The position numbers and the translations under genes are program-made. 32,000 nucleotides of DNA from Thermodesulfobacteriota bacterium. GTDB taxonomy: Bacteria; Desulfobacterota; WTBG01; JAGOGO01. The notes beneath the pieces were generated by a model. It had not been told where the DNA came from. It searched no databases and worked only from the letters and a program-made list of their open reading frames with translations. Below, in pieces: positions 2,744 through 32,000 of the stretch (its first letter is position 1; each line of letters opens with the position of its first letter). The stretch is from positions 2,802,651-2,834,650 of the forward strand of contig CP113000.1 in the NCBI GenBank assembly GCA_026625185.1, given 5' to 3'.

Positions 2744-3559
2744 TCAAAAATCGTCACCGTGTTTAAAGGGCGGTTCCTTTGCCCCAATGTAGAACGAACG
2801 CAATTCAACTGGCAAATTGCTTTGGTCCTTTACAAATAGCCTACCTTTTTGAACAAACGTTTCAACGTACCTCAGGGTATTGTTTACTTTTTCAGCAACC
2901 TTTGGGTCATTGCTATCACTGAAGAGTGAACGGGTGCCTTTCTCGACTATCAAATTCCAGCGCCAATTTAGAGTTTTGAGTTTTTTTGTCGTTCCGTCTT
3001 TAAGTGGGACTGCATACTCGAATATAAGGTCGTTTAGAATCGGGTATTCATCTTTGTCGATGACTTCGAAGACCGTAGGAAATCTTTCAACAACTGAAGG
3101 ATCTATAGCCACTCCTATCCAGTTCTGACAACCTTCAAGTTCGTATGCCTTTGCTAAGGCTTTTCCAACAAAGACATTGAGGTTTGGATTCTGATACATC
3201 TCTCCAAAGGCTATGCCTCCACGGAGGGGGGTACCCGAAGCCATGAAATGTTGTGAAAGTCGCCATGCATATACAAGGAGTTTCATACAACTCATAATAT
3301 CCTTGTCGTGAGATACTAAGATGATAGAGTCCGAAAAAACGTGTTTTGAACACCAAGGGAGTTTGGGTGGGTGTTCTCTAAACAATGTAGGAGTCTGCCC
3401 ATTTGGATCGAATGGACGGTTCATGAAATGCGATTCGAGTATTTTTCTTTCGTAATAGTGAGCAAGTTCAAGAAGGGGCGTGTTGAATAGCTTCGCTTTA
3501 AACCCCAAAATATCGAGGAAAGCAACAGTTCTTAAAGGAATGTCTGCCGACTCAGACAT
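2744..3559 (-). CDS. Hypothetical protein with an N-terminal palm-domain (class III cyclase / GGDEF / mCpol-like) signature
   Basis: 271 aa. VAFLDILGFKAKL resembles the FxDIxGF(T/K) beta1 metal-Asp motif. HVFSDSIILV is a candidate second acidic motif. TPLRGGIAFGEMY resembles cyclase RxGIHxG. The C-terminal ~100 aa are unassigned. Confidence 0.6.
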   Translation of the reverse strand: MSESADIPLRTVAFLDILGFKAKLFNTPLLELAHYYERKILESHFMNRPFDPNGQTPTLFREHPPKLPWCSKHVFSDSIILVSHDKDIMSCMKLLVYAWRLSQHFMASGTPLRGGIAFGEMYQNPNLNVFVGKALAKAYELEGCQNWIGVAIDPSVVERFPTVFEVIDKDEYPILNDLIFEYAVPLKDGTTKKLKTLNWRWNLIVEKGTRSLFSDSNDPKVAEKVNNTLRYVETFVQKGRLFVKDQSNLPVELRSFYIGAKEPPFKHGDDF

Positions 3560-3792
3560 GTCTCAGTTTCTCTCACTTCTCTGCAAACCATGTTTATATT
3601 GATCCGTATAAAACCCTAGAAAGCCAACTTTGTCAATATAAGAAACCTAAAAAATACTTTAAAAAATCGCTGTAACATTTTGTTATTATAGTTTATTAAA
3701 AATACACTTCATTTATTCAGGGGTTTTATGCGGATCGGTATAAAACCCCACAAATCCTCCTCGATCCTCCTTAAGAAAAACTGTATTAAAAT

Positions 3793-3900
3793 GTCATTCT
3801 GAGTTTTGCTGGACGCGAAGCAAAGAACCTATTTTTCCTAAGCTTTCGCGGAGTCTGTCCTGAACAAGATTCTTCAGTCGCTATCCTCCTTCAGAATGAC
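3793..3900. repeat. About 108-bp imperfect palindromic element (GTCATTCTGA ... TCAGAATGAC)
   Basis: Perfect 10-bp terminal inverted repeats at 3793-3802 and 3891-3900. Internal arms are partly complementary (GCGAAGCAAAGAACC versus AAGATTCTTCAGTCGC). It resembles the widespread gtcattctgag...ctcagaatgac intergenic palindromes. Confidence 0.5.
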
Positions 3901-4229
3901 AAGGCGACGGATTCATACCAAGTTGCATTCAAAAGTAGATCGAGGCGGCGACGAGGAATCGACGAAGGCGTACATTTTAGTATGTCGAGGAATATGACGA
4001 GGAGCCAACAAAGATATACAAATAAAGGCTACTTGGTATCATTTAAAAACAAAAAAAGCCTCTCACCTTTATGCTTGGTAATTCGGCCTTATTTTATTTT
4101 CATCATTCATGAAACCCCCTTCCTCGGACAAATAGATTTTACTGAAATTATTGGTTGGGGAGTTAATTAATTATATTCTTTTTTATCTTATCCAACGAAA
4201 AAGTCAAGGGAAAAGCGCCAAACCAAAAA

Positions 4230-6347: not shown

Positions 6348-7259
6348 GTGATGCGGTACTATTCATTTAGTCAATTTCTGAAAGAAAAGTTTGGAGAACG
6401 GGTTCAGAAGGTCACGCTTGATGCTGGCTTTGGGTGCCCCAATCGAGACGGCACCAAAGGTTGGGGAGGGTGTATTTATTGCGATCGTTTCGGCTCTGGA
6501 AGCGGGACACGGGAAAAGCATCCGGATATAAAGTCGCAGGCTTTGGCAGGAATGGAATCCATAAAAAAGCGATACCAGGCGCATAAGTTCATGCCGTACT
6601 TTCAGTCTTTCTCCAACACCTATGCTCCGGTGAACCAGCTCCGTTCTCTTTACGAGGAAGTAATCCATCTCCCAAACGTCGTTGGAATAGCGGTCGGAAC
6701 CCGTCCCGACTGTTTGACCAAAGAGGCGCTTGACGTGCTCGCCGGTTATGTTCCTCAGAAAATGGTCTGGCTGGAACTCGGCCTTCAGAGCGTCCATGAT
6801 GAAACCTTACGGTTGATTAACCGGGGACATACTTATCAGGAATTTTTAGAAGGCTATCACCTCGCCCGAAAATACCATCTTCTTATTTGTCTCCATGTTA
6901 TTATCGGTCTTCCGGAAGAAAATCGAGAACATGTTCTTGACACCGCCCGCGAAGTCGGCCGATTAAAACCTGACGGTATTAAAATCCATTCTCTTTATAT
7001 CAACCGAGATACTGTTTTGGGAAAAATGTATTGCGAAAAAAAATTCACGCCGATGAAACAAAAAGAATTTGTTGACCTAACCTGCGACTTCCTGGAACTT
7101 TTGCCGCCGACGGTGGTGATCCAGCGTTTAACCGGCGATCCTAATCCAAAAGAATTGGTTGCCCCGGAATGGACCTTAAGAAAAAGTGAAACCCTTCAGC
7201 TCATTCATAGGGAACTGGAAAGAAGAGATAGCCGGCAGGGAAAAAAGTACGCGATTTGA
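6348..7259 (+). CDS. TIGR01212-family radical SAM protein (YhcC-like)
   Basis: 303 aa. FGCPNRDGTKGWGGCIYCD matches the unusual TIGR01212 cluster-binding region, followed by WLELGLQS and IKIHSLY. Confidence 0.85.
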   Translation: MMRYYSFSQFLKEKFGERVQKVTLDAGFGCPNRDGTKGWGGCIYCDRFGSGSGTREKHPDIKSQALAGMESIKKRYQAHKFMPYFQSFSNTYAPVNQLRSLYEEVIHLPNVVGIAVGTRPDCLTKEALDVLAGYVPQKMVWLELGLQSVHDETLRLINRGHTYQEFLEGYHLARKYHLLICLHVIIGLPEENREHVLDTAREVGRLKPDGIKIHSLYINRDTVLGKMYCEKKFTPMKQKEFVDLTCDFLELLPPTVVIQRLTGDPNPKELVAPEWTLRKSETLQLIHRELERRDSRQGKKYAI

Positions 7260-10887: not shown

Positions 10888-11661
10888 ATGAAACGTCTTT
10901 CTGGTATTCTTTTAATCGGTTTTTTATTTTCCTTGATCCTCGCTGCTGCAACCTCCCCATCCGCGATTGGTCCATGTTATACTTATAAATTAATCAATGC
11001 CTATCCTCACGACCGCACTGCCTTTACCCAAGGATTAATTTACCAGGATGGGTGCCTCTATGAAAGCACCGGCCTGTATGGGCGCTCTTCCCTGAGGCAA
11101 GTAGACCTTAAAACCGGTATGGTTTTAAAAAAACATTCGCTTCCTTCTCTATTTTTTGGTGAAGGTATTACGGTATTCGGCACCAAAATAATTCAACTGA
11201 CGTGGAAATCAAGAATGGGATTCGTATATAACAAAGAAAACTTTGAAGTGCTTCAAACTTTCCGCTATCCCACCGAAGGCTGGGGGATTACCAACGACGG
11301 TCGGCGTTTGATTATGAGCGATGGTTCCTCCACCCTTTTTTTTCTTGATCCGGAAACATTCAGGGAGGTTGATAAAATAGAGGTGCTTGATCAAGATGGT
11401 GCGGCAGTAAAAGGAATTAATGAATTAGAATATATTAAGGATGAGATTTTTGCCAACATATGGCCAACCACTCGCATCGCTCGAATCTCACCTGAAACGG
11501 GCAGGGTGACGGGTTGGCTTGACCTTGCCGGGATTGTACCCTTGGAAAAGGACGCAGATGTTTTAAACGGTATTGCGTATGATGAAAGGAATGACCGTCT
11601 TTTTGTGACCGGGAAATTATGGCCGAAGGTCTTTGAGATAGAGATTTTTAAAATACGATGA
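10888..11661 (+). CDS. Glutaminyl-peptide cyclotransferase (bacterial/plant beta-propeller type), secreted
   Basis: Start taken at MKRLSGILLIGFLFSLILAAA (signal peptide). YPHDRTAFTQGLIYQDGCLYESTGLYGRSSLRQVDLKTG and NGIAYDERNDRLFVTGKLWP are characteristic. Confidence 0.85.
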   Translation: MKRLSGILLIGFLFSLILAAATSPSAIGPCYTYKLINAYPHDRTAFTQGLIYQDGCLYESTGLYGRSSLRQVDLKTGMVLKKHSLPSLFFGEGITVFGTKIIQLTWKSRMGFVYNKENFEVLQTFRYPTEGWGITNDGRRLIMSDGSSTLFFLDPETFREVDKIEVLDQDGAAVKGINELEYIKDEIFANIWPTTRIARISPETGRVTGWLDLAGIVPLEKDADVLNGIAYDERNDRLFVTGKLWPKVFEIEIFKIR

Positions 11662-12697
11662 TTTTTTCTTTAGGTTCAGCGACTACTTCTCCGATAATTA
11701 CTGCCTCAGGTACGTTTTTTCCCCTTAATTGAATAAGAAGACTATCCGCCTTTTCCCTGGGCACAGAAATCAAAAGCCCACCGGAAGTCTGGGGATCAAA
11801 AAAAATATCCGAAATAAAAGGAGGCATTGTGGAGGCAGGATCAACCCATTTTGAAAAAAATTCTTTGTTCCGAAAGGTTCCGGCCGGCATCAAGCCCTGT
11901 TGAGCATATTCCCGAGCCTCTTGAAAATAAGGAACTTTTTGGGCATGGATAACCATTCCGAAATCATTTCCTCTAACCATTTCACACAAGTGCCCTATAA
12001 GGCCAAAGCCGGTAATATCAGTGCAGGCACTTACCCCCACCTCCTGCATAGCCAAAGAAGCATTTTTATTTAATGCAGCCATTGATTCGGATACCTTAGC
12101 GATAACTTTATCATTCGCCATTCCACCTTTGATAGCGGTGTTAATGATACCAGTGCCTAATGGCTTGGTCAGGACCAAAGCATCGCCTACTTTAGCGTTG
12201 GAGTTAGTTAGAATATTATTGGGATGGATAATACCGTTTATTGAAAGCCCGTACTTTATCTCATTGTCTTCAATTGAGTGCCCACCTACTAAGGTGGTTT
12301 CGGCTTCTTTTAGTTTATCCAGTCCACCCCGAAGGATATTCTTTAATATTTCGATGTCCATGGTCTTGATGGGGAAACAGACTAAATTCATGGCGGTAAG
12401 GGGCTTCCCTCCCATGGCATAAACATCAGAGAGGGCATTAGCCGCGGCAATTTGGCCAAACCAGTACGGGTCATCAACAATGGGAGTAAAAAAATCTACG
12501 GTTTGAATGATCGCCAGGTCCTCGGATAATTTGTAGACCCCGGCATCATCGGATCTCTCGAATCCTACTATCAAGTTAGGGTCCTGCATTACCGGCAATC
12601 CGCAAAGCGCTTTATCCAGGTCCCCCGGACCTAATTTTGATGCTCAACCCGCGCCCTTAACGGTCGTAGTAAGACGAAGTTTTTTCTGTTCTTCCAT
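11648..12697 (-). CDS. selD: Selenide, water dikinase SelD, selenocysteine-containing (in-frame UGA at 12644-12646)
   Basis: The ORF track starts at 12598, but the same frame continues upstream through one TGA to ATG 12697 and reads [55 protein letters not shown]. The U aligns with catalytic Cys17 of E. coli SelD (GAGCGCK). Total length is 1050 nt, which is 350 codons, so the extension is in frame. Confidence 0.9.
12618..12632 (-). promoter_or_regulatory. Candidate bacterial SECIS hairpin of selD
   Basis: Minus-strand AGGUCC-GGG-GGACCU: a 6-bp perfect stem with a G-rich apical loop, starting 11-12 nt 3' of the UGA. Confidence 0.6.
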
Positions 12698-12815
12698 GGC
12701 TACTATCCGCAACCCTGCCTTTCTCGTTTGGTTTTTTTCACAAATCAAACTTGCATATCAATCATAACCAAAAGAAAAAATCAAGCCGAAATAGCAGACT
12801 CAAAAAAGACGATAG

Positions 12816-13058
12816 CTAAAGTGGGCAGATGCCTTGAATATCCAGGTTGCTTTCAATGAGAACCTTTTTTACTCTGGACTCCTCTTTGGTTTCAAAGCGG
12901 ACACAAATTCCGCAATCCGAGCTTAGGTGCCTGGGCACAGGAATAAGCTTGAAAGCCACATTTTCAGCTTTCAATAATTTCTCGGCCCGGAGCGCTCCGC
13001 TTACTGAATAAAAAAGCGCCACCCTATAATTCTTTTCCGGTTCTTCATTAAAGCTCAA
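12816..13058 (-). CDS. DUF3343 (putative Se/S carrier-like) protein
   Basis: 80 aa. YRVALFYSVSGALRAEKLLKAENVAFKLIPVPRHLSSDCGICVRF matches the DUF3343 pattern seen next to yedE/yedF genes. Confidence 0.8.
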   Translation of the reverse strand: MSFNEEPEKNYRVALFYSVSGALRAEKLLKAENVAFKLIPVPRHLSSDCGICVRFETKEESRVKKVLIESNLDIQGICPL

Positions 13059-13629
13059 TTACTTTACCCGCTCCCAACAATGTTGAGGCAATATCATACA
13101 TATTTGAAATCCGACCTATTGCCACCTTATCTTTTATCTCAAAATAACCCAAACAGGTTCCGCAGGCAAGAATATCAATTCCTTTTTCCCCAAGAACACG
13201 CAGATCTTCCAAAACCGGTGATGATTCGACTACCAGTTTAACCCCGGTGTTGAGAAAAATAATCTTCTCGGGAAGCGGGAAAATCTCTCCCAGCGTGTGC
13301 AGAAAGGAGCGCATCAGCAACTGTCCCAGCTCCTCACTGCCGCGGCCAAAGGCATCAGAGGCAATTAGAAAAACGGTCGAACCGGTTTTTTCCTCAGGCC
13401 GCACTGTTTCAGATTCGGCCCTTTCCAGGCTGAGCTGCAGATAAAATAACCCATCTTTCTCTTCGGTTTCAACCCGAAACCCTTTGCTTCTGGCCAAACG
13501 GGATACATTCTCCTTTGCTGCTTCATTATCAACAATGGTGGTGATCGCGTCGGATTCTCCTAAAGCCCGATTGGTCAAAACAACCGGTTGGGGGCATGAA
13601 AGCCCGCGGGCGTCAATAACTATCGCCAT
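13048..13629 (-). CDS. yedF: Selenium metabolism protein YedF, long form (TusA/SirA-like N-domain plus DsrE-like C-domain)
   Basis: 193 aa. N-terminal IDARGLSCPQPVV (TusA CPxP motif). The C-terminal half reads FLIASDAFGRGSEELG...ILACGTCL. Sits in selenium gene context. Confidence 0.8.
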   Translation of the reverse strand: MAIVIDARGLSCPQPVVLTNRALGESDAITTIVDNEAAKENVSRLARSKGFRVETEEKDGLFYLQLSLERAESETVRPEEKTGSTVFLIASDAFGRGSEELGQLLMRSFLHTLGEIFPLPEKIIFLNTGVKLVVESSPVLEDLRVLGEKGIDILACGTCLGYFEIKDKVAIGRISNMYDIASTLLGAGKVIEL

Positions 13630-13640
13630 ATAATCTCCTT

Positions 13641-14804
13641 TTATTTGGCCTTGGAAGCAATTTTTGCGATTGCTTCGAGAAATGTCTTGATATTGTCTTC
13701 GGTGGTGAAATACCCGGGACTTATCCGCACAGTTCCTAAAGGAAAAGTTCCCAGTGTCTTATGGGCCAGAGGAGCGCATTGAAGTCCAGGACGACACATA
13801 ATATTATAATCCTCATCCAATTGCAATGCCACCTCAGAGGAAGAAAGCCCGGCGATATTAAAAGAAACCACCGCCACTTGTTGGCGAGGATCCCCGCTTC
13901 CATAAAGGGTTACTTTGGGGATCGTCTGAATCTCTTCAATAATGCGTCTTGTTAAGTTTTCCTCTCTTGGGCGGAGATTAGCGATACCTTGAGAAAGAAT
14001 AAATTTAACTCCAGCTGCCAGTCCCGCTAACCCGACCGTGTTCGGTGTGCCGCTTTCGTATTTATCGGGAAGAAAACTCGGCTGGTGTTCTGATTCGGAC
14101 CGGCTTCCCGTGCCCCCCCGCATCAGAGGCTTAAGAACGTCTTCTACTCCTTTGGCGACACAAAGCCCGCCGGTTCCGGGAGGACCAAAAAGCAACTTAT
14201 GGCCGGAAAAAGCAAGTAAATCGATGTTCATCACCTTAATATCAATTGGAAAAGCCCCGGCGGTCTGAGCCGCATCCACGCAAAAAATCACATTGTGTCG
14301 CCGGGCAATAGCGCCGATTTCCGCCACCGGCACGAGCGTGCCCACAACATTGGAGGCATGATTCAGGATAATAAGTCGGGTCTTCGACTTAATGGTTTTT
14401 CCCACGTCTTGCGGATCAAGAAAGCCTTCCGCCGAGCAATTGACGGTGGTTATTTCAACCCCCTGGTCTTCCAGAGCACGAAGCGGCCGCATCACCGAGT
14501 TGTGTTCCATGGTGCTGGTTATAACATGATCTCCCGGCCGCAGGATGCCGCGTACCGTCAGATTCAATGCTTCGGTTGCGTTTTTTGTGAATATGACGCG
14601 CAGAGGATCGTCAAGATTAAAAAGCTGTGCGATGATTTCCCTCGCTTCGTAAACCACGCGGCCCGCCTCGATGGAAAGCCGATGTCCGGAGCGACCAGGA
14701 TTGGCCCCAATATGGCGCATAAAGTTTTCCATCGTCCGATAGACTTCTTCCGGCTTGGGCCAGGAGGTTGCTGCATTGTCCAAATAAATTAAGTTATTAT
14801 CCAT
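13641..14804 (-). CDS. Class-V aminotransferase: cysteine desulfurase / selenocysteine lyase family
   Basis: 387 aa. IYLDNAATSWP, TSTMEHNSV, the FSGHKLLFGPPGTGGL PLP-lysine motif and the active-site loop RGGTGSRSESEHQP. Confidence 0.85.
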   Translation of the reverse strand: MDNNLIYLDNAATSWPKPEEVYRTMENFMRHIGANPGRSGHRLSIEAGRVVYEAREIIAQLFNLDDPLRVIFTKNATEALNLTVRGILRPGDHVITSTMEHNSVMRPLRALEDQGVEITTVNCSAEGFLDPQDVGKTIKSKTRLIILNHASNVVGTLVPVAEIGAIARRHNVIFCVDAAQTAGAFPIDIKVMNIDLLAFSGHKLLFGPPGTGGLCVAKGVEDVLKPLMRGGTGSRSESEHQPSFLPDKYESGTPNTVGLAGLAAGVKFILSQGIANLRPREENLTRRIIEEIQTIPKVTLYGSGDPRQQVAVVSFNIAGLSSSEVALQLDEDYNIMCRPGLQCAPLAHKTLGTFPLGTVRISPGYFTTEDNIKTFLEAIAKIASKAK

Positions 14805-14848
14805 TTTTATTTCTTATAATATGTTAAACAAAGCCAGCCAAACGTGGA

Positions 14849-15607
14849 TCAAGAAACCAGTTGCCCCGCATAGAGAGCGGCGCCTAAAGCTCCGACAGTC
14901 TGCGGGCTATCGGGCACAGTCAGCGGAACTCTCATTACCTGTGCCAAAAGTTTACACATACACGGGTTATAAGCCACGCCGCCGGCAAAAATAAATCTCG
15001 GCTGTTGTCCTACCCGGCGCACCATCGCGCTTACACGATCAACAATGGCCTGGTGAATCCCCTGTGCCACGCAACGGCTGTCTTCTCCCCGGCCGGTTAG
15101 TGAGACCACTTCGGATTCGGCAAAGACCGCACACATACTCGAAAGCCGGACCGCTTTTCCTTCCGCATTCAGCGCGTGTTCACCCAATTCCTTGATATCT
15201 AAACCTAAGGCATTCGCCATATTTTCCAAAAAGCGGCCTGTCCCGGCGGCACAACGATCGTTCATCTCAAATCTTCCCACGCCCCCGTCTGATTTTACCA
15301 GAATAACTTTGCTGTCCTGTCCTCCGATGTCGAGCACTGTCCGAACATCAGGAAAAAAATGATGGGCGCCGATGGCATAGGCTTTTATTTCGGTGATGAC
15401 CTCATCCGCAAGTTTGCGTTCAACGACCAGATGTCGCCCATAGCCGGTGGCAACCAGCCGGTCATAGGAGCGACCGTTGATCAAACGCTGCGAATTTATG
15501 AAGGGATCGACCCCGGTATACGCAACTTCTTCCCGCGTAATTCGCTCCCCATCCCACTCCACCAAGGCAATCGTCCTTGAACCGATATCCAGTCCGGCAG
15601 TCAACAT
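14849..15607 (-). CDS. BadF/BadG/BcrA/BcrD-type ATPase; activase (archerase) of a 2-hydroxyacyl-CoA-dehydratase/DCCP-type reductase
   Basis: 252 aa. GLDIGSRTIALV (ASKHA phosphate-1), DIGGQDSKVI, NDRCAAGTGRFLE and SSMCAVFAESEV, which carry the two Cys that bridge the [4Fe-4S] cluster in HgdC-like activators. Confidence 0.85.
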   Translation of the reverse strand: MLTAGLDIGSRTIALVEWDGERITREEVAYTGVDPFINSQRLINGRSYDRLVATGYGRHLVVERKLADEVITEIKAYAIGAHHFFPDVRTVLDIGGQDSKVILVKSDGGVGRFEMNDRCAAGTGRFLENMANALGLDIKELGEHALNAEGKAVRLSSMCAVFAESEVVSLTGRGEDSRCVAQGIHQAIVDRVSAMVRRVGQQPRFIFAGGVAYNPCMCKLLAQVMRVPLTVPDSPQTVGALGAALYAGQLVS

Positions 15608-15661
15608 TCTATTTCTCCAGGTTTTCCATACCTGACAAACTTCTAAAAATTCAACAAACCG

Positions 15662-16819
15662 TTATATCATTTCCAGAAAAGCCTCAATCCGCACCCTCAT
15701 AGTTTCCCGATCAGCATCGGAAAAATCAGTTGTTAGGTGCAGGAAAGGTTTTTCAAGCTTGTTCTTGACCAAATCGGCAACCCAATATGACTCTATATTA
15801 TAGGTGTGACAGCCGTGCCAAGTCAAATCAACAACGCCGTCAACAGCAAAGTCATGAATCATCCTCTCCAGGAGTTGGATGCGTTTTTTATTAGGTGACA
15901 TCACCGAACACGGAATGCCGACCTGCTTTTCAGCCAACAATAAGATGGGATCGCGGCAATCGGTTTCATCAATGCGCAAATCCAAACTTTTGTAGCCGCC
16001 GCAGATCTCCATTGCGACCACCAAACCGCCATACTCTTCAACCAATGAAACCACCTTATCATCATTTTCACCCAACGGAGTTCCGGTTAACAATATCCGC
16101 GGTGTTTTTTCGTTGCCGACATGATAACCTTGCTGAGCCTTTTTTTTAATTTCTTCTGTTAACCTATCAATCAGGGCAACTCCCGACATTCGATCAATGC
16201 TGTATCCTGCCTGAGCAACAATCACCAGCAGGTCCTTACCGGAAAGCAGAGCCGGTTTATTCCGGTTGAGATCAAACAGTTCCTTTCGGGCGCGAGCTTC
16301 TTCGTTGGTCACATGAATCGCCTCACGCAATGCCTCATCGGTTATTTTAACTCCCAATTCTTTTTCAATCGCAGTTTTGAGCCTCCGCACCTCGCTTTTC
16401 CACAACGTAATTGACATAGGTAAATCCGGGATTTGAGGTAGGTTCATCACATGGATCGGCTTGATGCGCTGCAGTATCTCATACATTTTTTTTTTGCCGT
16501 CGCAGGTGGTTTCAGCGACGATCATATCTGAGGCATGAAAAAAAGGACAGGTATCGCTAACCGCCAAATCATACGATGATCTGATAATCGGGCAGAGATT
16601 AGGAGGCAAATCATTATCAGCGGCAAGGAATGGTTCTTTCTTGTTCCCACATAAAGGAACCGCGATAGCCCCGGCCGCAAGCGCCAATTCTACCGGGCTG
16701 TAGGCGCAGTAATGGCCGATTACCTTTTTGCCTTCTTTTTTGGCCGATAAAAGGGCCCCAATATTTTCATTTCGCGTTTCTGAAAGTGCTGAAAAAAGTT
16801 CAGACCGTAATTCAAGCAT
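15662..16819 (-). CDS. 2-hydroxyacyl-CoA dehydratase / BcrC-BadD / double-cubane-cluster-protein (DCCP)-like reductase component
   Basis: 385 aa. GHYCAYSPVELALAAGAIAVPLCG, NLCPIIRSSYD, AETTCDGKKKMYE and the conserved Cys spacing are typical of the HgdB/DCCP superfamily. It lies directly upstream of its cognate activase. Confidence 0.8.
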   Translation of the reverse strand: MLELRSELFSALSETRNENIGALLSAKKEGKKVIGHYCAYSPVELALAAGAIAVPLCGNKKEPFLAADNDLPPNLCPIIRSSYDLAVSDTCPFFHASDMIVAETTCDGKKKMYEILQRIKPIHVMNLPQIPDLPMSITLWKSEVRRLKTAIEKELGVKITDEALREAIHVTNEEARARKELFDLNRNKPALLSGKDLLVIVAQAGYSIDRMSGVALIDRLTEEIKKKAQQGYHVGNEKTPRILLTGTPLGENDDKVVSLVEEYGGLVVAMEICGGYKSLDLRIDETDCRDPILLLAEKQVGIPCSVMSPNKKRIQLLERMIHDFAVDGVVDLTWHGCHTYNIESYWVADLVKNKLEKPFLHLTTDFSDADRETMRVRIEAFLEMI

Positions 16820-16890
16820 GGTATTTCCTAATCAACTTCCTAAAATTTTTATCAATATGAATTTATAGAATATTTTTGTATAAATCACCA

Positions 16891-17109
16891 TTACTCTTTG
16901 TTAATGGTAAGGTGATATTCGTTCCCTTCGGTCTGAATCTGTTTCACCTTCCACCCTTTGCTCGCTACTGCGCGGGCTACATTTTCTTTGGCAGTATCAT
17001 TGTCAACCAAAACCACCATCTCTCCTTTTTCCAGTAACTCCATTCCCTTTAACGTCACCAGCACCGGCTGAGGACAGGAAAGTCCACGTGCATCAATTTT
17101 TTTTAACAT
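16891..17109 (-). CDS. TusA/SirA-family sulfur (selenium) carrier, short YedF-like
   Basis: 72 aa. KIDARGLSCPQPVLVT is the CPxP motif. It lies immediately downstream of yedE, as in the E. coli yedE-yedF pair. Confidence 0.85.
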   Translation of the reverse strand: MLKKIDARGLSCPQPVLVTLKGMELLEKGEMVVLVDNDTAKENVARAVASKGWKVKQIQTEGNEYHLTINKE

Positions 17110-17120
17110 GATATTTCTCC

Positions 17121-18215
17121 TTATGCGACCTTATTTCTCATAGTGCCACCAATGAAAAGACAAACAAAAATTCCGACAACAACCGCTGCAATACCATGCG
17201 GTCCAATTCCTTGAGGGGAACTGGCTAACCCAAAATTATGGGCAAAAGCCGCGCCAACAATCATCCCCAGAACAAAAATCGCCGCATCCCCATCTCCCTC
17301 TCCAGCCAGAAATAATTGCCTTCCGGGACAGCCACCGGCAAGAGCAAACGCGAGTCCCGCCAAAGCCATCCCGCTGAAGTTCCACAGACCCATGGTGTGG
17401 GCAATCGGTTGATTCTGGAAACCCGGATGAAATTGCCCAAGTATCATATTCATAATAAAGGCTGCCACAATAAGGGCAACAACCCCTGAAAAAAGATGGA
17501 GTTGCCGGAACAAAATAAGGTCCCGGAAAGCACCCATGGTACAGAACCGGCTTCGTTGGGCCAGAAAACCCACTGCCACCCCGGCAATCAAAGACATTAC
17601 CAGCGGAGCATGCATTGCGCCCGGCCCCTTTGCGCTGTAAAGAAGAACTCCGCTGCTCTCTTGCCCTTCAAGAGGAGGAAAAATTATCCGTAAAAATAAA
17701 AATCCCATCATGATCAGCGGCAAAATCCAACCCACCGGAGTAAGCGTCGGCTGAGAGCGCCCCAGGTTGTATCCGCCTCTGAAAAATAACGTCCCGATCC
17801 AAATGCCAAAAATCAGGCCGAGCAAGCCCAATATCGCGTTTCCATCCCCGCCGGCAAGCCGTAATAAAGTCCGCCAGGGGCATCCGAGAAAAACCAGCGC
17901 CCCGATCATGGCAAATACTCCAAGAACAAACCGCACAATGGGAGCGGAACCCGCACGGGCCCGAAATTCTTTAAAGAGGTAGGCTGCAAGCAAAGACCCC
18001 AAGACAAAACCAATGATCTCCGGTCGCATATATTGCACCACCGCTGCCCGATGAAGTCCTAAGGCCCCGGCAATATCCCGCTCAAAACAGGCAACGCATA
18101 TCCCCATATTACCTGGGTTGCCGAACTTTTGTAAAAGGGGCGCAAGGATTCCGATAACTGCCCCTACCCCAATGATTCCCCAGCGGCCAGCAAATATGTT
18201 TTTCAGGCCATTCAT
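17121..18215 (-). CDS. yedE: YedE/YeeE-family membrane protein (putative selenium/sulfur compound transporter)
   Basis: 364 aa, polytopic. GNMGICVACFERDIAG, RSRFCTMGAFRD and GGCPGRQL are conserved Cys-containing re-entrant motifs of the YedE/YeeE family. Confidence 0.85.
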   Translation of the reverse strand: MNGLKNIFAGRWGIIGVGAVIGILAPLLQKFGNPGNMGICVACFERDIAGALGLHRAAVVQYMRPEIIGFVLGSLLAAYLFKEFRARAGSAPIVRFVLGVFAMIGALVFLGCPWRTLLRLAGGDGNAILGLLGLIFGIWIGTLFFRGGYNLGRSQPTLTPVGWILPLIMMGFLFLRIIFPPLEGQESSGVLLYSAKGPGAMHAPLVMSLIAGVAVGFLAQRSRFCTMGAFRDLILFRQLHLFSGVVALIVAAFIMNMILGQFHPGFQNQPIAHTMGLWNFSGMALAGLAFALAGGCPGRQLFLAGEGDGDAAIFVLGMIVGAAFAHNFGLASSPQGIGPHGIAAVVVGIFVCLFIGGTMRNKVA

Positions 18216-28283: not shown

Positions 28284-28356
28284 GATGTAAAAATCCCCTT
28301 TAAGAGTGAATGGGGGCTTACGGCTTGACCCATCCGCAGTGCCCCGGTCAAAAACA

Positions 28357-28527
28357 CTATTTCTTCTCGCTCTTGTCACCATTCTTGTCATCAGCGACTG
28401 TTTTATCATCCTTTGTTGCAGGACCCCCGCAACCTTCTCCCGGGCCTCAAGAACATCCACCAGTTTTAGCCATAGATTCCATAATCGCCGACCAGAAGCC
28501 CTTTTTCTTTTTCTCTTCATTTTTCAT
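28357..28527 (-). CDS. Candidate small selenoprotein (56 aa with UGA read as Sec) or 26-aa leader peptide
   Basis: GAGGTGA (28539-28533) plus 5 nt leads to ATG 28527. Peptide: MKNEEKKKKGFWSAIMESMAKTGGCS-[TGA 28449-28447]-GPGEGCGGPATKDDKTVADDKNGDKSEKK-TAG. A hairpin follows 12 nt after the TGA. Confidence 0.45.
28415..28434 (-). promoter_or_regulatory. Candidate SECIS hairpin for the small ORF
   Basis: Minus strand GGUUGCGGG-GGU-CCUGCAAC: 8 bp including one G-U pair, with a GGU apical loop. It resembles the E. coli fdhF SECIS apex GGUUGCAGGUCUGCACC as I recall it. The spacing from the UGA is the same as in selD in this window. Confidence 0.45.
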
Positions 28528-28576
28528 CTTAATCACCTCTCTTCGTGGACATATAATGAAATTAAACTTTTTTCCT

Positions 28577-29365
28577 TTATGTTGTTGGCACCCCAAAATC
28601 TCTGATACCTATCCATTCTCTTGAAAGGAGTGCCATATTTTTTTCAAACTGCTCCAAATGAGTTTCAAGCGCTTTTGCTTCCTGATATACGTAGCGAGCC
28701 TCGTTGGCTAAGCCAGCATCCTTGGCCAATTTTTCAATCCGGCGGGTAAAACCTCCGAGAGGTGCAATCCGGTTTCTAAAATTGTGTGCGATTTCACCTA
28801 CAAAGACCTCATTCTTTTTTATAGATTCAATCATGTGCTCGACTAATTCCGCTCGTCCAACGGCTGCTCCAATCAATTCACCCACCACCTTCAAATAGTC
28901 GAAATCTTTAGAAGAAATAGGAGACCCTTCTTTACCCGAGTCAACAATTAATGCCCCAACTTTATTCTCTTCCTGAGTAACCGGATGTACATACCAAATC
29001 GGAATGATCGCCTTAATCTTGACCGCATCCGATAAAGTGTGTCGGTAACCCTCGGTTTGACGGATATCAGTCAAATTTACCGGTACTCGGTTTTTGACCA
29101 CCTCCCAGACAATGCTCTCCTTGCATACCGGAACTTTTTCTATCGGGCAATCATATTTACCCACCCAGCAGGTGAGCTTCAATTCGTCTCTTTCCATAAG
29201 GACACACCGCGCCCGTTTTCCTAACCTTTGGCTTAATTGATCGAGACAAGTTTTAATAAGATAATCACGATTCATACAGGTGCTCACCAGACGGGCGATT
29301 TCTATGAGATCCTGGTAACGTCTGGAAATATCCCCTTCTTTTCCCTTTGCCTTTTTAGTCCCCAT
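28577..29365 (-). CDS. GAF domain plus HisKA-like dimerisation/phosphoacceptor (DHp) protein lacking a catalytic HATPase domain
   Basis: Start at ATG 29365 after GGAGG plus 7 nt. The central region is GAF-like. The H-box VGEIAHNFRNRIAPLGGF sits near the C-terminus, and the protein ends about 55 aa later with no N/G1/F/G2 boxes. Confidence 0.7.
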   Translation of the reverse strand: MGTKKAKGKEGDISRRYQDLIEIARLVSTCMNRDYLIKTCLDQLSQRLGKRARCVLMERDELKLTCWVGKYDCPIEKVPVCKESIVWEVVKNRVPVNLTDIRQTEGYRHTLSDAVKIKAIIPIWYVHPVTQEENKVGALIVDSGKEGSPISSKDFDYLKVVGELIGAAVGRAELVEHMIESIKKNEVFVGEIAHNFRNRIAPLGGFTRRIEKLAKDAGLANEARYVYQEAKALETHLEQFEKNMALLSREWIGIRDFGVPTT

Positions 29366-29487
29366 CTCAGAACCTCCATCGTTCCTTGTTTTACTCAACA
29401 ATTTTCAGACATCGTAATGCCCTGGGCCAAGTCTCAATAAAATTCTCCATGCTAAAACGCTATGCTTTTAAAAGTGTTTTCCGTGTT

Positions 29488-30117
29488 TCAAAACGTAACG
29501 AGAAAATAGAACCCGGCAATCATCAAAACCGATCCTGAAACCCATCGGGTTGCGGCATCGGCGCCCTTGGCCGCGAGGCTGACTTTGCTCAGCGAAACGC
29601 CCAGCAAGACGGCTCCCAGCGGTATGCTGAAACCAATGGCAAACATGGCCAGCATTAATATCGCCCAAACGACTTTCCCTTGCAGAATCGCCGCTCCGAT
29701 AACGATAAATATGCCGGGATTACACGGGCAAGAACTGACGGCGACAATCCCGCCGAGCACAAGTCCGGCCAAGGCCGCTCCGAATTTTCCCACCCTATTC
29801 GTAATTCCTCCGAGCTTCCCGAAAGATAGTTTAAAGGGCAGAAGGCTCAGCGTGGCCAGCCCCAAAAAAACCGCCACGAGTCCGGCGAATACCTTCCAGT
29901 ACCGGCCCAAGCTGCTCTGGGCAATTTGCCCGACGAACCCGGCGATACCGCCAATGATCATCAGGGAGACAATCGTTCCCACGGTAAAAAACAACGCGGT
30001 CTTGAAAGCCGCCTTCCGATTGTCATTCGCCTGGGCGCCGGAATACCCGACCAGAATCCCCAACGCAGGGAGGGTGCAGCAAGCGCTCATGGCCGCGCTC
30101 ACAGCGCCAAGGAGCAA
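29488..30117 (-). CDS. CcdA/DsbD-like 6-TM membrane protein with vicinal CC and CPC motifs; 5' end probably frameshifted
   Basis: 209-aa ORF from TTG. TM1 carries SACCTLP and TM4 carries VSSCPCNPG. An SD-led ATG at 30185 encodes MLESITNSLQQVASHNP in another frame and would join LGLVFALLLGAV... if the C4 run at about 30133-30136 were C5. Confidence 0.7.
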   Translation of the reverse strand: MLLGAVSAAMSACCTLPALGILVGYSGAQANDNRKAAFKTALFFTVGTIVSLMIIGGIAGFVGQIAQSSLGRYWKVFAGLVAVFLGLATLSLLPFKLSFGKLGGITNRVGKFGAALAGLVLGGIVAVSSCPCNPGIFIVIGAAILQGKVVWAILMLAMFAIGFSIPLGAVLLGVSLSKVSLAAKGADAATRWVSGSVLMIAGFYFLVTF

Positions 30118-30200
30118 GGCGAATACAAGGCCCAGGGGTTGTGCGAGGCAACCTGTTGCAGGGAGTTGGTTATTGATTCAAGCATGAAACACCCCTTTTC

Positions 30201-31319
30201 TCAATTGCATCCGGATGATGGCGCGCAACTCGATGGTCCGCAGCCCCCGGCTCGTGATGTTGCCGTAAATGCCTGCAACAATTTCGATTCCGTAACGTCC
30301 CCGGTGACTGCCGCCATGCCTTTACCCTTGCTTGCGACGAGAATGGCAGGGGCCTGAACTTGAGTAGAGATCTTGGAGTAATCGGGGGAACTGACCGGCA
30401 AGGTATATATTCCAAGGTTGATCTTGTTGGTTTTTAAAGTTTTTTGTGCCGACAGAACGGCGTCTTTTGTCTGGTCCTTAACCGCCTCATCCTTTTCACG
30501 GGGAATGAAAATAAAAACAGCGTCTTGACTCAAAGCTACCTTGTTAAGGTCGCTGAGAGACTCCAGGTATTCCCCAATTTTGGGCACTGCCTTGGAATTT
30601 TTAAGCTCTACTTTCTCTATTTTTTTCTCCTTTTTATTCTCAATGGGCTTTTGATCGACAACTTTAGAGGTTTCTGTAATTTCATTTTTGACAGGCATCT
30701 CTGCTTTGTCGCCATTTAAAGGCTGGGTGGCGCTATCGGTCACTGGTTCAGGGGCCTTGGGTGCGACAGTAAAGCCGGATGTTTTTGCTGCGGCCAAATC
30801 GTTAGATGATTTCCCTTTTGTGACCGATGTCTTGAAGATTAGGATGCCGATGACTACCAATAACACGATAAGGCTGACTGCAACCTTGATTCCCTTGGCT
30901 TTCGGGGGGGCGTTGCAAGCGCACCCGGGTCCGCAGGAATTCATGCCGCTCTGTGGTTCGAGTGGAGATGGGGGGCTGTTAATGGGCGAATGCTCTGCGG
31001 TCACCACCTTGTCAATTCCTATAAATTGCAGAAGTTCACCCCTTAAGGGATAGCTCCCTCTGCTTACAATTACCCCATCCACCAAAATTAGGGGAAGACA
31101 TTTGTTGCCTTCTCGATTCAGAGCTTCCGCCACACGTTCCTCCCGGGCAAACTCGGCGGTATGTGAAGAGAGGTTGAATCGCTCTACCACCACGCCCTTT
31201 TTCCGCAACCAGTCCAGGTCACTGGAAAACCTCACCAAATCGGGATCAACTTTTGGTCCGCACACCACACTCGAACAGCACATCGGCGGGTCGTACACTT
31301 GCAGTTTGGTTTGTTGCAT
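30201..31319 (-). CDS. ArsD-domain fusion protein: ArsD metallochaperone-like N-domain, Cys-rich linker, TM helix, Trx-fold-like C-domain, Cys-rich tail
   Basis: Start ATG 31319 (AGGAG plus 6 nt). KLQVYDPPMCCSSVVCGPKVDPDLVRFSSDLDWLRKKGVVVERFNL...CLPLILVDG matches R773 ArsD, including Cys12/13/18. Then come CGPGCAC, the TM helix IKVAVSLIVLLVVIGILIF, and the tail GGCGPSSCAPSSGCN. Confidence 0.75.
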   Translation of the reverse strand: MQQTKLQVYDPPMCCSSVVCGPKVDPDLVRFSSDLDWLRKKGVVVERFNLSSHTAEFAREERVAEALNREGNKCLPLILVDGVIVSRGSYPLRGELLQFIGIDKVVTAEHSPINSPPSPLEPQSGMNSCGPGCACNAPPKAKGIKVAVSLIVLLVVIGILIFKTSVTKGKSSNDLAAAKTSGFTVAPKAPEPVTDSATQPLNGDKAEMPVKNEITETSKVVDQKPIENKKEKKIEKVELKNSKAVPKIGEYLESLSDLNKVALSQDAVFIFIPREKDEAVKDQTKDAVLSAQKTLKTNKINLGIYTLPVSSPDYSKISTQVQAPAILVASKGKGMAAVTGDVTESKLLQAFTATSRAGGCGPSSCAPSSGCN

Positions 31320-31340
31320 CACTTTCTCCTTTAAATTAGA

Positions 31341-31580
31341 TTAACCACAGCATTTGGAATTGCTGTCAGAACAGCAGGCGCCACTGTTTGATTGGGGCTG
31401 ATTGAGAACCAAGCCAACATGCTTCCTCATAGCAGTTAAGGTGCCTTTTTCAACCATATAGCCGACTTCAATTGCCACTTTTATTTCGTTTTCGTCAACC
31501 TTAAGTTCCCGCGCCTTGCCCAGGTGAACCGTCAGGCAGGGCTGACAATGAGTTCCAACCGAGACACCAATGGCGATCAA
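31341..31580 (-). CDS. Carboxymuconolactone decarboxylase / AhpD-like CxxC protein with a Cys-rich tail
   Basis: (L)IAIGVSVGTHCQPCLTVHLGKARELKVDENEIKVAIEVG is the AhpD-core CxxC motif. The tail is GACCSDSNSKCCG. Family similarity continues upstream (NLIDERIKEL), but TTG 31580 is the only canonical start. Confidence 0.7.
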   Translation of the reverse strand: MIAIGVSVGTHCQPCLTVHLGKARELKVDENEIKVAIEVGYMVEKGTLTAMRKHVGLVLNQPQSNSGACCSDSNSKCCG

Positions 31581-31647
31581 CTCCTTTATGCGCTCGTCGA
31601 TTAAATTGCTCCTTTCATTTTCTTGTTCGTAAGTCGATGATGATCGT

Positions 31648-31875
31648 TCATCCGCAACTACATCCGGGCCCGCAACCTCCCGACTCGCCTCCCGACTTAT
31701 TTCCCCTGCTCACCTTTGAACTGAGAATGCCGAATCCGCCCAGGACGACGCGCCGAATCGGCTCACCCGTGTCGGGATGTGTTGTCAACGCCTCGTCCTT
31801 CATGCTTTGCTGAATCTCATAGATCTTCGGCTTCTCTCCGGGATTTCCCGGAATCGTTTCGTAAACGTAAATCAT
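31648..31875 (-). CDS. FmdB-family-like small protein lacking both CxxC knuckles, with a GCGPGCSCG tail
   Basis: Start ATG 31875 after AAGGAGA plus 8 nt. MIYVYETIPGNPGEKPKIYEIQQSMKDEALTTHPDTGEPIRRVV parallels FmdB MPIYEYxCxxCGxxFExxQxMxDxxLxxCPxCGxxxxR with the Cys positions replaced. The tail is GGESGGCGPGCSCG. Confidence 0.55.
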   Translation of the reverse strand: MIYVYETIPGNPGEKPKIYEIQQSMKDEALTTHPDTGEPIRRVVLGGFGILSSKVSRGNKSGGESGGCGPGCSCG

Positions 31876-32000
31876 GGTGCCATTCTCCTTTTTTTGGCGT
31901 ATCTTCGTTCGTTTAGTACGTAAAAGCGGTCTGTCAAGGAGGCTGGGGAATTCCAGCACCGCGTCTGGTCGAACAGAATCGGCTAAGGCAATCGGATTTC

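Follow-up and report, generated by a model that had tools for sequence, protein, structure and literature searches.

A candidate selenocysteine-containing AntC-like metallochaperone encoded upstream of a P1B-type ATPase in a Thermodesulfobacteriota genome

Introduction

Among described systems, the one closest to the locus analyzed here is the antRCA operon of Comamonas testosteroni JL40, on which, together with its AntC protein, the primary papers are reportedly those of An et al. that appeared in 2021 and 2024 in Sci Total Environ. According to two other papers, this operon encodes the Sb(III) chaperone AntC and the pump AntA, and AntC of C. testosteroni is a functional Sb(III) chaperone that is active from a separate cassette (PMC12641948, PMC12665635). 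In the JL40 sequence that we compared (contig60; locus L014), an ArsR-type gene (403–837) is followed by a 61-aa ORF (879–1064) and then by the ATPase; the 61-aa ORF is identified as AntC from its place in the gene order and from secondary descriptions. A second point of reference is ArsD, which serves the ArsA ATPase as an As(III) metallochaperone; it is a soluble Cys-rich carrier acting through thiol ligand exchange.

Selenoproteins are recognized by an in-frame TGA opposite a conserved Cys with conservation on both sides and by TGA-containing homologues in other organisms, and further by the presence of selA, selB, selC, and selD in the host and by selenium demonstrated in the protein (PMC13188914). 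Here, we analyze a small ORF on the minus strand of a 32,000-nt stretch of DNA (hereafter, the window), for which an original prediction had proposed a new small selenoprotein in the leader of a P1B-ATPase gene. Coordinates of the features are collected in Table 1.

Table 1 Features of the window discussed in the text
Feature	Position	Strand	Remarks
antC-like gene	28357..28527	-	56 codons and TAG stop; product MKNEEKKKKGFWSAIMESMAKTGGCS-U-GPGEGCGGPATKDDKTVADDKNGDKSEKK (translation)
Shine–Dalgarno GAGGTGA	28533..28539	-	5 nt ahead of ATG 28527 (direct reading)
In-frame TGA, proposed Sec codon, residue 27	28447..28449	-	aligns with invariant Cys column
Candidate bSECIS hairpin GUUGCGGG-GGU-CCUGCAAC	28415..28433	-	13 nt after TGA (folding and bSECIS rules)
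antC-antA intergenic spacer	28284..28356	-	GGGGC...GCCCC stem-loop and ATPase Shine–Dalgarno (AAAGGGG)
AntA-type P1B ATPase, 634 aa	26379..28283	-	Pfam E1-E2_ATPase and Hydrolase; CPC motif in LLVACPCAFAIATP
Spurious N-terminal extension of ATPase ORF	28284..28520	-	alternative frame; GenBank 713-aa protein WAC07211.1
GAF-domain protein gene	28577..29401	-	Pfam GAF_2; directly upstream of antC
selD (selenophosphate synthetase)	11648..12697	-	ATG 12697; TGA 12646-12644 in GAG-U-ASK
selD hairpin UUAGGUCC-GGG-GGACCUGG	12616..12634	-	spacing 17 nt; bSECIS rank 8th
TusA/DsrE (YedF-like) protein	13048-13629	-	selenium-utilisation cluster
Class-V aminotransferase/cysteine desulfurase	13641-14804	-	selenium-utilisation cluster
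Sulf_transp (YedE-like) protein	17121-18215	-	selenium-utilisation cluster

Results

A conserved small gene precedes the ATPase gene

Re-reading of the sequence recovered every element of the proposed ORF, namely the Shine–Dalgarno sequence GAGGTGA, the 5-nt spacer, ATG 28527, the in-frame TGA, and the open frame to the TAG; after the TGA, 29 further codons remain open up to the TAG at 28359–28357. The ORF is co-oriented with the ATPase gene starting at ATG 28283, and a 73-nt spacer separates the two. When the ATPase was used as a query against species-representative genomes, 27 loci of close orthologues were obtained (62–81% identity to the window ATPase), which came from Planctomycetota, Verrucomicrobiota, Kiritimatiellota, Nitrospirae, Syntrophaceae, and proteobacterial plasmids or contigs (Comamonas, Mesorhizobium, and Hydrogenophaga). 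Immediately ahead of the orthologous ATPase gene, 26 of the 27 loci contained an ORF of approximately 46–77 aa with the same design, and the 27th locus ends at that point; the loci with the syntenic small ORF span at least five phyla. Alignment of the window protein (U entered as C) with 25 homologues (alignment A1) revealed four invariant columns: G10, the UGA position, which is occupied by Cys in 25/25 homologues, G28, and C33, the last two of which lie C-terminal to the UGA. A profile search returned 1209 sequence clusters, all of them unnamed (labelled hypothetical) and none with a Pfam domain; searches of Pfam and NCBIfam gave zero matches at E ≤ 1 for any of 26 family members, and a PDB sequence search with the family likewise gave zero matches. 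The small ORF is a genuine gene that has been conserved.

The window protein and the 61-aa ORF of JL40 share 48% identity over 42 aa (BLASTP, E 2e-07), with U27 paired with the first Cys of GCGPGCGC in the JL40 protein, and both fall in one family alignment together with intermediates from five phyla. The window ATPase, which has no N-terminal metal-binding domain, is 64–65% identical to the ATPase of the JL40 ant locus, and LLVACPCAFAIATP is common to both. On the basis of the homology to the JL40 ORF and the antR-antC-antA gene order, we regard the small ORF as an AntC orthologue. The original prediction had treated it as an anonymous leader ORF of the P1B-ATPase; the gene itself proved real, but it has a named counterpart, being orthologous to AntC, the Sb(III) metallochaperone encoded in the ant operon.

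The location of the ORF 73 nt upstream of the ATPase start, the stem-loop in the spacer, and the possibility that selenium-dependent read-through could in principle tune downstream expression would also suit a regulatory leader peptide (uORF), in which termination at the UGA controls expression of the ATPase and the peptide has no function as a protein. We consider this very improbable, since homologues from different phyla, in 1209 sequence clusters, are conserved in amino-acid sequence and have invariant Cys and Gly residues, and such conservation is unusual for leader peptides; in addition, the C. testosteroni member is described, in the sources cited above, as a functional Sb(III) chaperone working from a separate cassette. 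A small protein is thus supported over a 26-aa leader peptide, with Cys at the UGA position in 25 homologues and invariant residues beyond it.

In GenBank, this region is annotated differently. A 713-aa ORF from ATG 28520, which the original prediction did not mention, overlaps the entire small ORF in another frame and corresponds to record WAC07211.1 ('MAG: Thermodesulfobacteriota bacterium'); the 634-aa ATPase had no exact match in the protein databases, where the 713-aa version is found instead. If this annotation were right, translation of the ATPase would begin at ATG 28520, its N-terminus would be extended by 79 residues rich in Arg and Lys, and the small ORF would overlap this stretch by chance. 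The frame is indeed open for 713 codons and is chosen by other gene callers as well, and the frame of the JL40 ATPase is also open upstream (a 738-aa ORF). However, in the nearest relatives (L063, L069, and L075; 90% nucleotide identity) the extension frame is interrupted 3 codons ahead of the ATPase ATG, the number of open codons in it ranges between 0 and 142 across orthologues, protein conservation lies in the other frame, and the similarity of the ATPase to its homologues begins with the product of ATG 28283. Because the frame is closed in the nearest relatives and variable in open length elsewhere, the 713-aa reading was rejected, and we regard it as barely credible.

Several loci contained an antC ORF that runs in frame, with no stop, from the upstream gene (L015/L016, approximately 3444–4000 and 852–1408; L027, 3157–3813; L003, 2747–3202; L006, 3565–4020). 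The combinations were ArsD-antC (on a Mesorhizobium plasmid), ArsC-antC, and an unnamed CxxC protein-antC, and they are possibly natural fusions of a chaperone module, or chance. In another homologue (P0096), the ligand loop is duplicated internally (GPGETCGGPVETCCGP), and the Cys cluster is thus able to expand.

The UGA codon occupies an invariant Cys position and recurs in relatives

The TGA stands opposite a conserved Cys, with conservation on either side. A pattern scan of metagenomes gave 41 matches, five of which were true homologues with TGA at this position, so that the search for Cys- or UGA-containing homologues next to P1B ATPases suggested in the original prediction yielded 25 Cys forms and five further TGA contigs. 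These five contigs represent three further distinct ORF sequences in two groups; they carry consecutive JGI identifiers and may share one sampling project. Group A (L063, L069, and L075; ...KTGGCS-U-GPGESCGGPATKDGKTVADDKKGDKTEKK, then stop) has approximately 90% nucleotide identity to the window, and group B (L072 and L080; ...KTGGC-U-GPGETCCGPVTE[DN]DKTTTEK.KESDK.GKK, then stop) approximately 72%. The UGA context is GGC-U in group B versus GGCS-U in the window and group A; the frame, the invariant residues, the stop position, and the KK end before the stop are kept in all TGA forms. A Shine–Dalgarno sequence of the AGGAGG/GAGGTGA type is also present ahead of the ATG in the Sec-form loci L063, L072, and L080.

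In a neighbor-joining tree of the ATPases, the two TGA groups were not sisters, and the ATPases of one group have just 75% identity to those of the other. Close relatives of group B (L100–L105), whose ATPases are approximately 92% identical to those of group B, carry TGC at the codon that is TGA in group B. Such interleaving of putative Sec forms with Cys forms is the pattern typical of selenoprotein families.

Comparison of the window with L063 downstream of the UGA gave dN 0.061 and dS 0.42 (dN/dS ~0.15), which differs from the near-neutral ratio named beforehand as evidence against translation; the upstream half (dN 0.032 and dS 0.163) and the ATPase (dN 0.038 and dS 0.257) gave similar results. 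The estimates for the 3′ half rest on 29–30 codons and, though small, are consistent with translation of the 3′ half.

A nonsense-truncated (pseudogenised) antC, in which the UGA is a genuine stop that leaves a 26-aa peptide and a remnant of 29 untranslated codons, has to be weighed against these data. TGC differs from TGA by one base, making a nonsense allele formally possible; the same downstream hairpin occurs in close Cys relatives and hence need not be selected for recoding; and members of each TGA group have diverged only modestly from one another (ATPase dS 0.22–0.28), so that a remnant could still look intact. Against this, two groups that do not cluster together and whose ATPases differ as stated above both have the TGA precisely at the codon of the invariant Cys, and zero other in-frame stops were found among the 26 syntenic homologues. 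The invariant residues, the frame, and the stop position past the TGA are kept in 4/4 distinct TGA sequences, the dN/dS after the UGA is low in the window's group, and the UGA-containing selD implies that the host recodes UGA. We therefore judge truncation unlikely. Taken together, these observations lead us to assign a probability of roughly 0.8 to the reading that the window ORF is the antC of an antC-antA metalloid-efflux unit and that its UGA is read as selenocysteine, Sec insertion itself being inferred from the sequence pattern.

Low synonymous divergence in the 3′ half of antC in group B was considered as a sign of constraint at the nucleotide level, and this was rejected, as it equals the dS of the ATPase (0.1–0.28). 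Separately, the 5′ half of antC in L080 (8571–8642) was far more diverged from L072 and L100–L104 (dS ~1) than were the 3′ half and the ATPase (dS 0.1–0.28), which suggests a recombination breakpoint inside L080 antC. Among the other genes at 29400–32000 of the window, examination for in-frame UGA revealed no convincing case.

The hairpin downstream of the UGA

An 8-bp stem with a 3-nt GGU loop is located at 28433–28415, starting 13 nt past the TGA, with the apical loop from 21 nt after the UGA, in agreement with the hairpin with a GGU apex that had been predicted. Its folding energy was −10.0 kcal/mol (z −3.8), and 0/200 shuffled sequences folded as well. The hairpin conforms to all four published bSECIS criteria; when these rules were applied to all 1151 UGA triplets in the window, 1.7% qualified, with the antC hairpin in 3rd place and that of selD in 8th. 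The antC hairpin exceeds what is expected by chance. Its proposed resemblance to the selD hairpin extends to the architecture (8-bp stem and GGN loop), with a spacing of 21 nt in antC versus 17 nt in selD. The resemblance to the apex of the E. coli fdhF SECIS was also borne out: GGUUGC...GGU...CUGCA-C is common to both, and the fdhF SECIS sequence used was confirmed at 100% identity under fdhF.

The fold and its conformity to the rules thus hold, but the hairpin carries less weight than in the original prediction, since hairpins resembling it are present in close relatives that have Cys. The hairpin GUUGC-GGUCCU-G[U/C]AAC of L072 and L080 is found again in the Cys forms L100 and L101, and many Cys forms fold as well as or better than the Sec forms; specificity of the hairpin was dropped as an argument for Sec because the energies do not discriminate between the two. 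Comparable hairpins in the Cys forms can be attributed to the self-complementarity of Cys, Gly, and Pro codons (UGC, GGN, and CCN). The hairpin is therefore compatible with recoding and not diagnostic of it; it may be a pre-existing structure that makes a TGC-to-TGA change viable, or a relic in forms that have reverted to Cys.

The energy of the group B hairpin, −6.4 kcal/mol, narrowly misses the threshold of −7.5. When 45 nt of context are folded, a competing structure has the minimum energy for the window sequence, and the fold of the whole region around the UGA is no more stable than shuffled sequences (z +0.46); only the local hairpin stands out. Rfam at gathering thresholds found nothing in the window, the UGA of selD included, and it is therefore uninformative for bacterial SECIS elements here, being silent even at that codon.

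Evidence for selenocysteine decoding in the host

The claim that the host decodes Sec was supported by selD, whose in-frame TGA at 12646–12644 was confirmed; a UGA-encoded SelD implies working Sec machinery. Within the 32,000-nt window, selA, selB, and tRNA-Sec (the last searched with ARAGORN) were absent. The UGA-containing selD belongs to a selenium-utilisation cluster that occupies 11648–18215 on the minus strand.

Genes and sequence elements around antC-antA

The spacer equivalent to that between antC and antA folds strongly in L072 and L080 (−24.7 kcal/mol, z −4.7), and a weaker GGGGC...GCCCC stem is present in the window and L063. This stem-loop could set the chaperone:pump stoichiometry or mRNA stability. 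The GAF-domain gene is probably the first gene of the unit; a GAF gene also lies ahead of antC in L101 (1711–2439), L104 (1422–2156), and L105 (1352–2086). These three loci are Cys-form relatives of group B, and there, as in the window, the GAF gene replaces the ArsR-type AntR of Comamonas. The GAF protein (approximately 245–275 aa) contains a histidine-kinase-like H-box (EIAHNFRNRI) and has no ATPase domain.

The Cys-Gly-Pro motifs GGCGPGCSCG, CGPGCAC, and GGCGPSSCAPSSGCN are present at the ends of, or within, neighbouring proteins, as had been noted originally. An ArsD-domain protein (30201–31322, minus strand) has a 250-residue C-terminal extension ending in RAGGCGPSSCAPSSGCN, and the ORF at 31648–31959 (minus strand), called FmdB-like in the earlier context and with no Pfam match, ends in GGCGPGCSCG. 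A similar tail (...SRAGGCCSSGGSGPTVCK) occurs in the L001 ORF at 6483–6617, downstream of the ATPase. Tails of the Cys-Gly-Pro type look like a module common to this island, and the ArsD-domain protein and Cys-tailed small proteins nearby fit metalloid detoxification.

Discussion

The favoured reading, antC with a UGA-encoded Sec, suggests the following mechanism. SelB and Sec-tRNA(Sec) would bind the hairpin, whose GGU loop lies 21 nt after the UGA, to yield the 56-residue protein. The product is predicted to be mostly disordered, with a Lys-rich N-terminus, one short amphipathic helix (GFWSAIMESMAK), and a charged tail; an AlphaFold2 model of a Cys homologue (P0028) had a mean pLDDT of 54.6 and a single helix at residues 11–21, a low-confidence result that would fit a flexible peptide. 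The Lys-rich N-terminus and the helix may dock at the membrane or the pump. Three soft ligands follow the helix in the window protein, C25, U27, and C33, with one putative Sec instead of Cys, and the flexible loop C25-S-U27-GPGEG-C33 would offer one selenolate and two thiolates. By homology with AntC, these could form a three-coordinate soft-ligand site for Sb(III)/As(III), from which the metalloid would pass by ligand exchange to the CPC site of a pump that has no metal-binding domain of its own. Selenocysteine has a low pKa and is highly nucleophilic. At the invariant ligand position, it would be a fully ionised and more nucleophilic donor, and its replacement of the family-wide invariant Cys would be expected to allow faster capture and hand-off.

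We also offer a broader and more tentative proposal, which is possible but to our mind rather doubtful: that Sec has replaced the key ligand of AntC more than once, favoured by proto-SECIS codons, giving an S2Se metalloid site and selenium-dependent resistance. The coding of Cys-Gly-Gly-Pro-Ala (UGC GGN GGN CCN GCA) would in itself form a proto-SECIS hairpin at the right distance, and a single TGC-to-TGA change could then be readable as Sec at once in a Sec-competent host. If so, the S2Se site would bind Sb(III)/As(III) via a direct Se–metalloid bond and speed hand-off to the pump, and metalloid resistance would depend on selenium supply.

The Sec-form AntC would add one selenoprotein family beyond the current inventory of 119 and the curated HMM libraries, one in which the role of Sec, as part of a carrier protein, is probably to ligate a toxic metalloid directly and not to act as a redox catalyst; as a 56-aa peptide, it is accessible by synthesis. 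The locus also exposes a systematic annotation error, in which the small gene is missed and the ATPase receives a false 79-residue N-terminus in GenBank. As the AntC family has no model despite its more than 1200 clusters, ant-type systems are under-recognised in anaerobes. In sediment Thermodesulfobacteriota, the locus links selenium utilisation to arsenic and antimony detoxification.

With respect to known selenoproteins, an inventory from 2026, which lists 119 families and subfamilies from prokaryotes (its Table 1), has no AntC-like entry and no C(S)UGPGE motif, the family is not covered in Haft's eight-families preprint, and none of the papers in our literature search linked AntC to selenocysteine. 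Known Sec-containing heavy-metal and metalloid resistance proteins resemble the present case in that Sec takes the place of a metal-ligand Cys and in that they are typically annotated as truncated or missed; in contrast to them, the proposed Sec here resides in a separate 56-aa chaperone and not in the pump, and none of their NCBIfam models matches the AntC-like family. From the absence of an inventory entry and of a match to an NCBIfam selenoprotein model, we conclude that this is a previously unlisted candidate selenoprotein family. Compared with the E. coli fdhF SECIS, in which the GGU starts 19 nt after the UGA as against 22 nt here, a similar position, the window stem pairs fully over 8 bp, lacks the bulged U, and closes a 3-nt loop; recognition by SelB is a prediction.

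The resemblance to ArsD is by analogy: like ArsD, the AntC-like protein would be a Cys-rich soluble carrier that hands a trivalent metalloid to an efflux ATPase, and an ArsD-domain gene lies 1.7 kb from the small ORF in the window. Unlike the AntC-like protein, ArsD has a folded thioredoxin-like domain of approximately 120 aa and serves ArsA/ArsB, not a P-type pump; the two have no sequence relationship, and the small ORF had no match to Pfam ArsD. The closest counterpart is AntC of JL40, likewise a small protein (61 aa versus 56 aa here) encoded immediately upstream of an AntA-type P1B ATPase devoid of an N-terminal metal-binding domain, and the two share a Lys-rich N-terminus, the motif KKG[FL]W..I..ES, a Cys-Gly-Pro-Gly cluster, and a charged tail. 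The differences are that the first Cys of the cluster is UGA-encoded here (the proposed Sec), with a SECIS-like hairpin behind it, that the cluster reads C-S-U-GPGEG-C in place of GCGPGCGC, that a GAF-domain gene stands upstream where JL40 has an ArsR-type AntR, and that the host is an anaerobic Thermodesulfobacteriota MAG. As judged from sequence, the window protein is probably a Sec-containing variant of the recently described AntC chaperone family.
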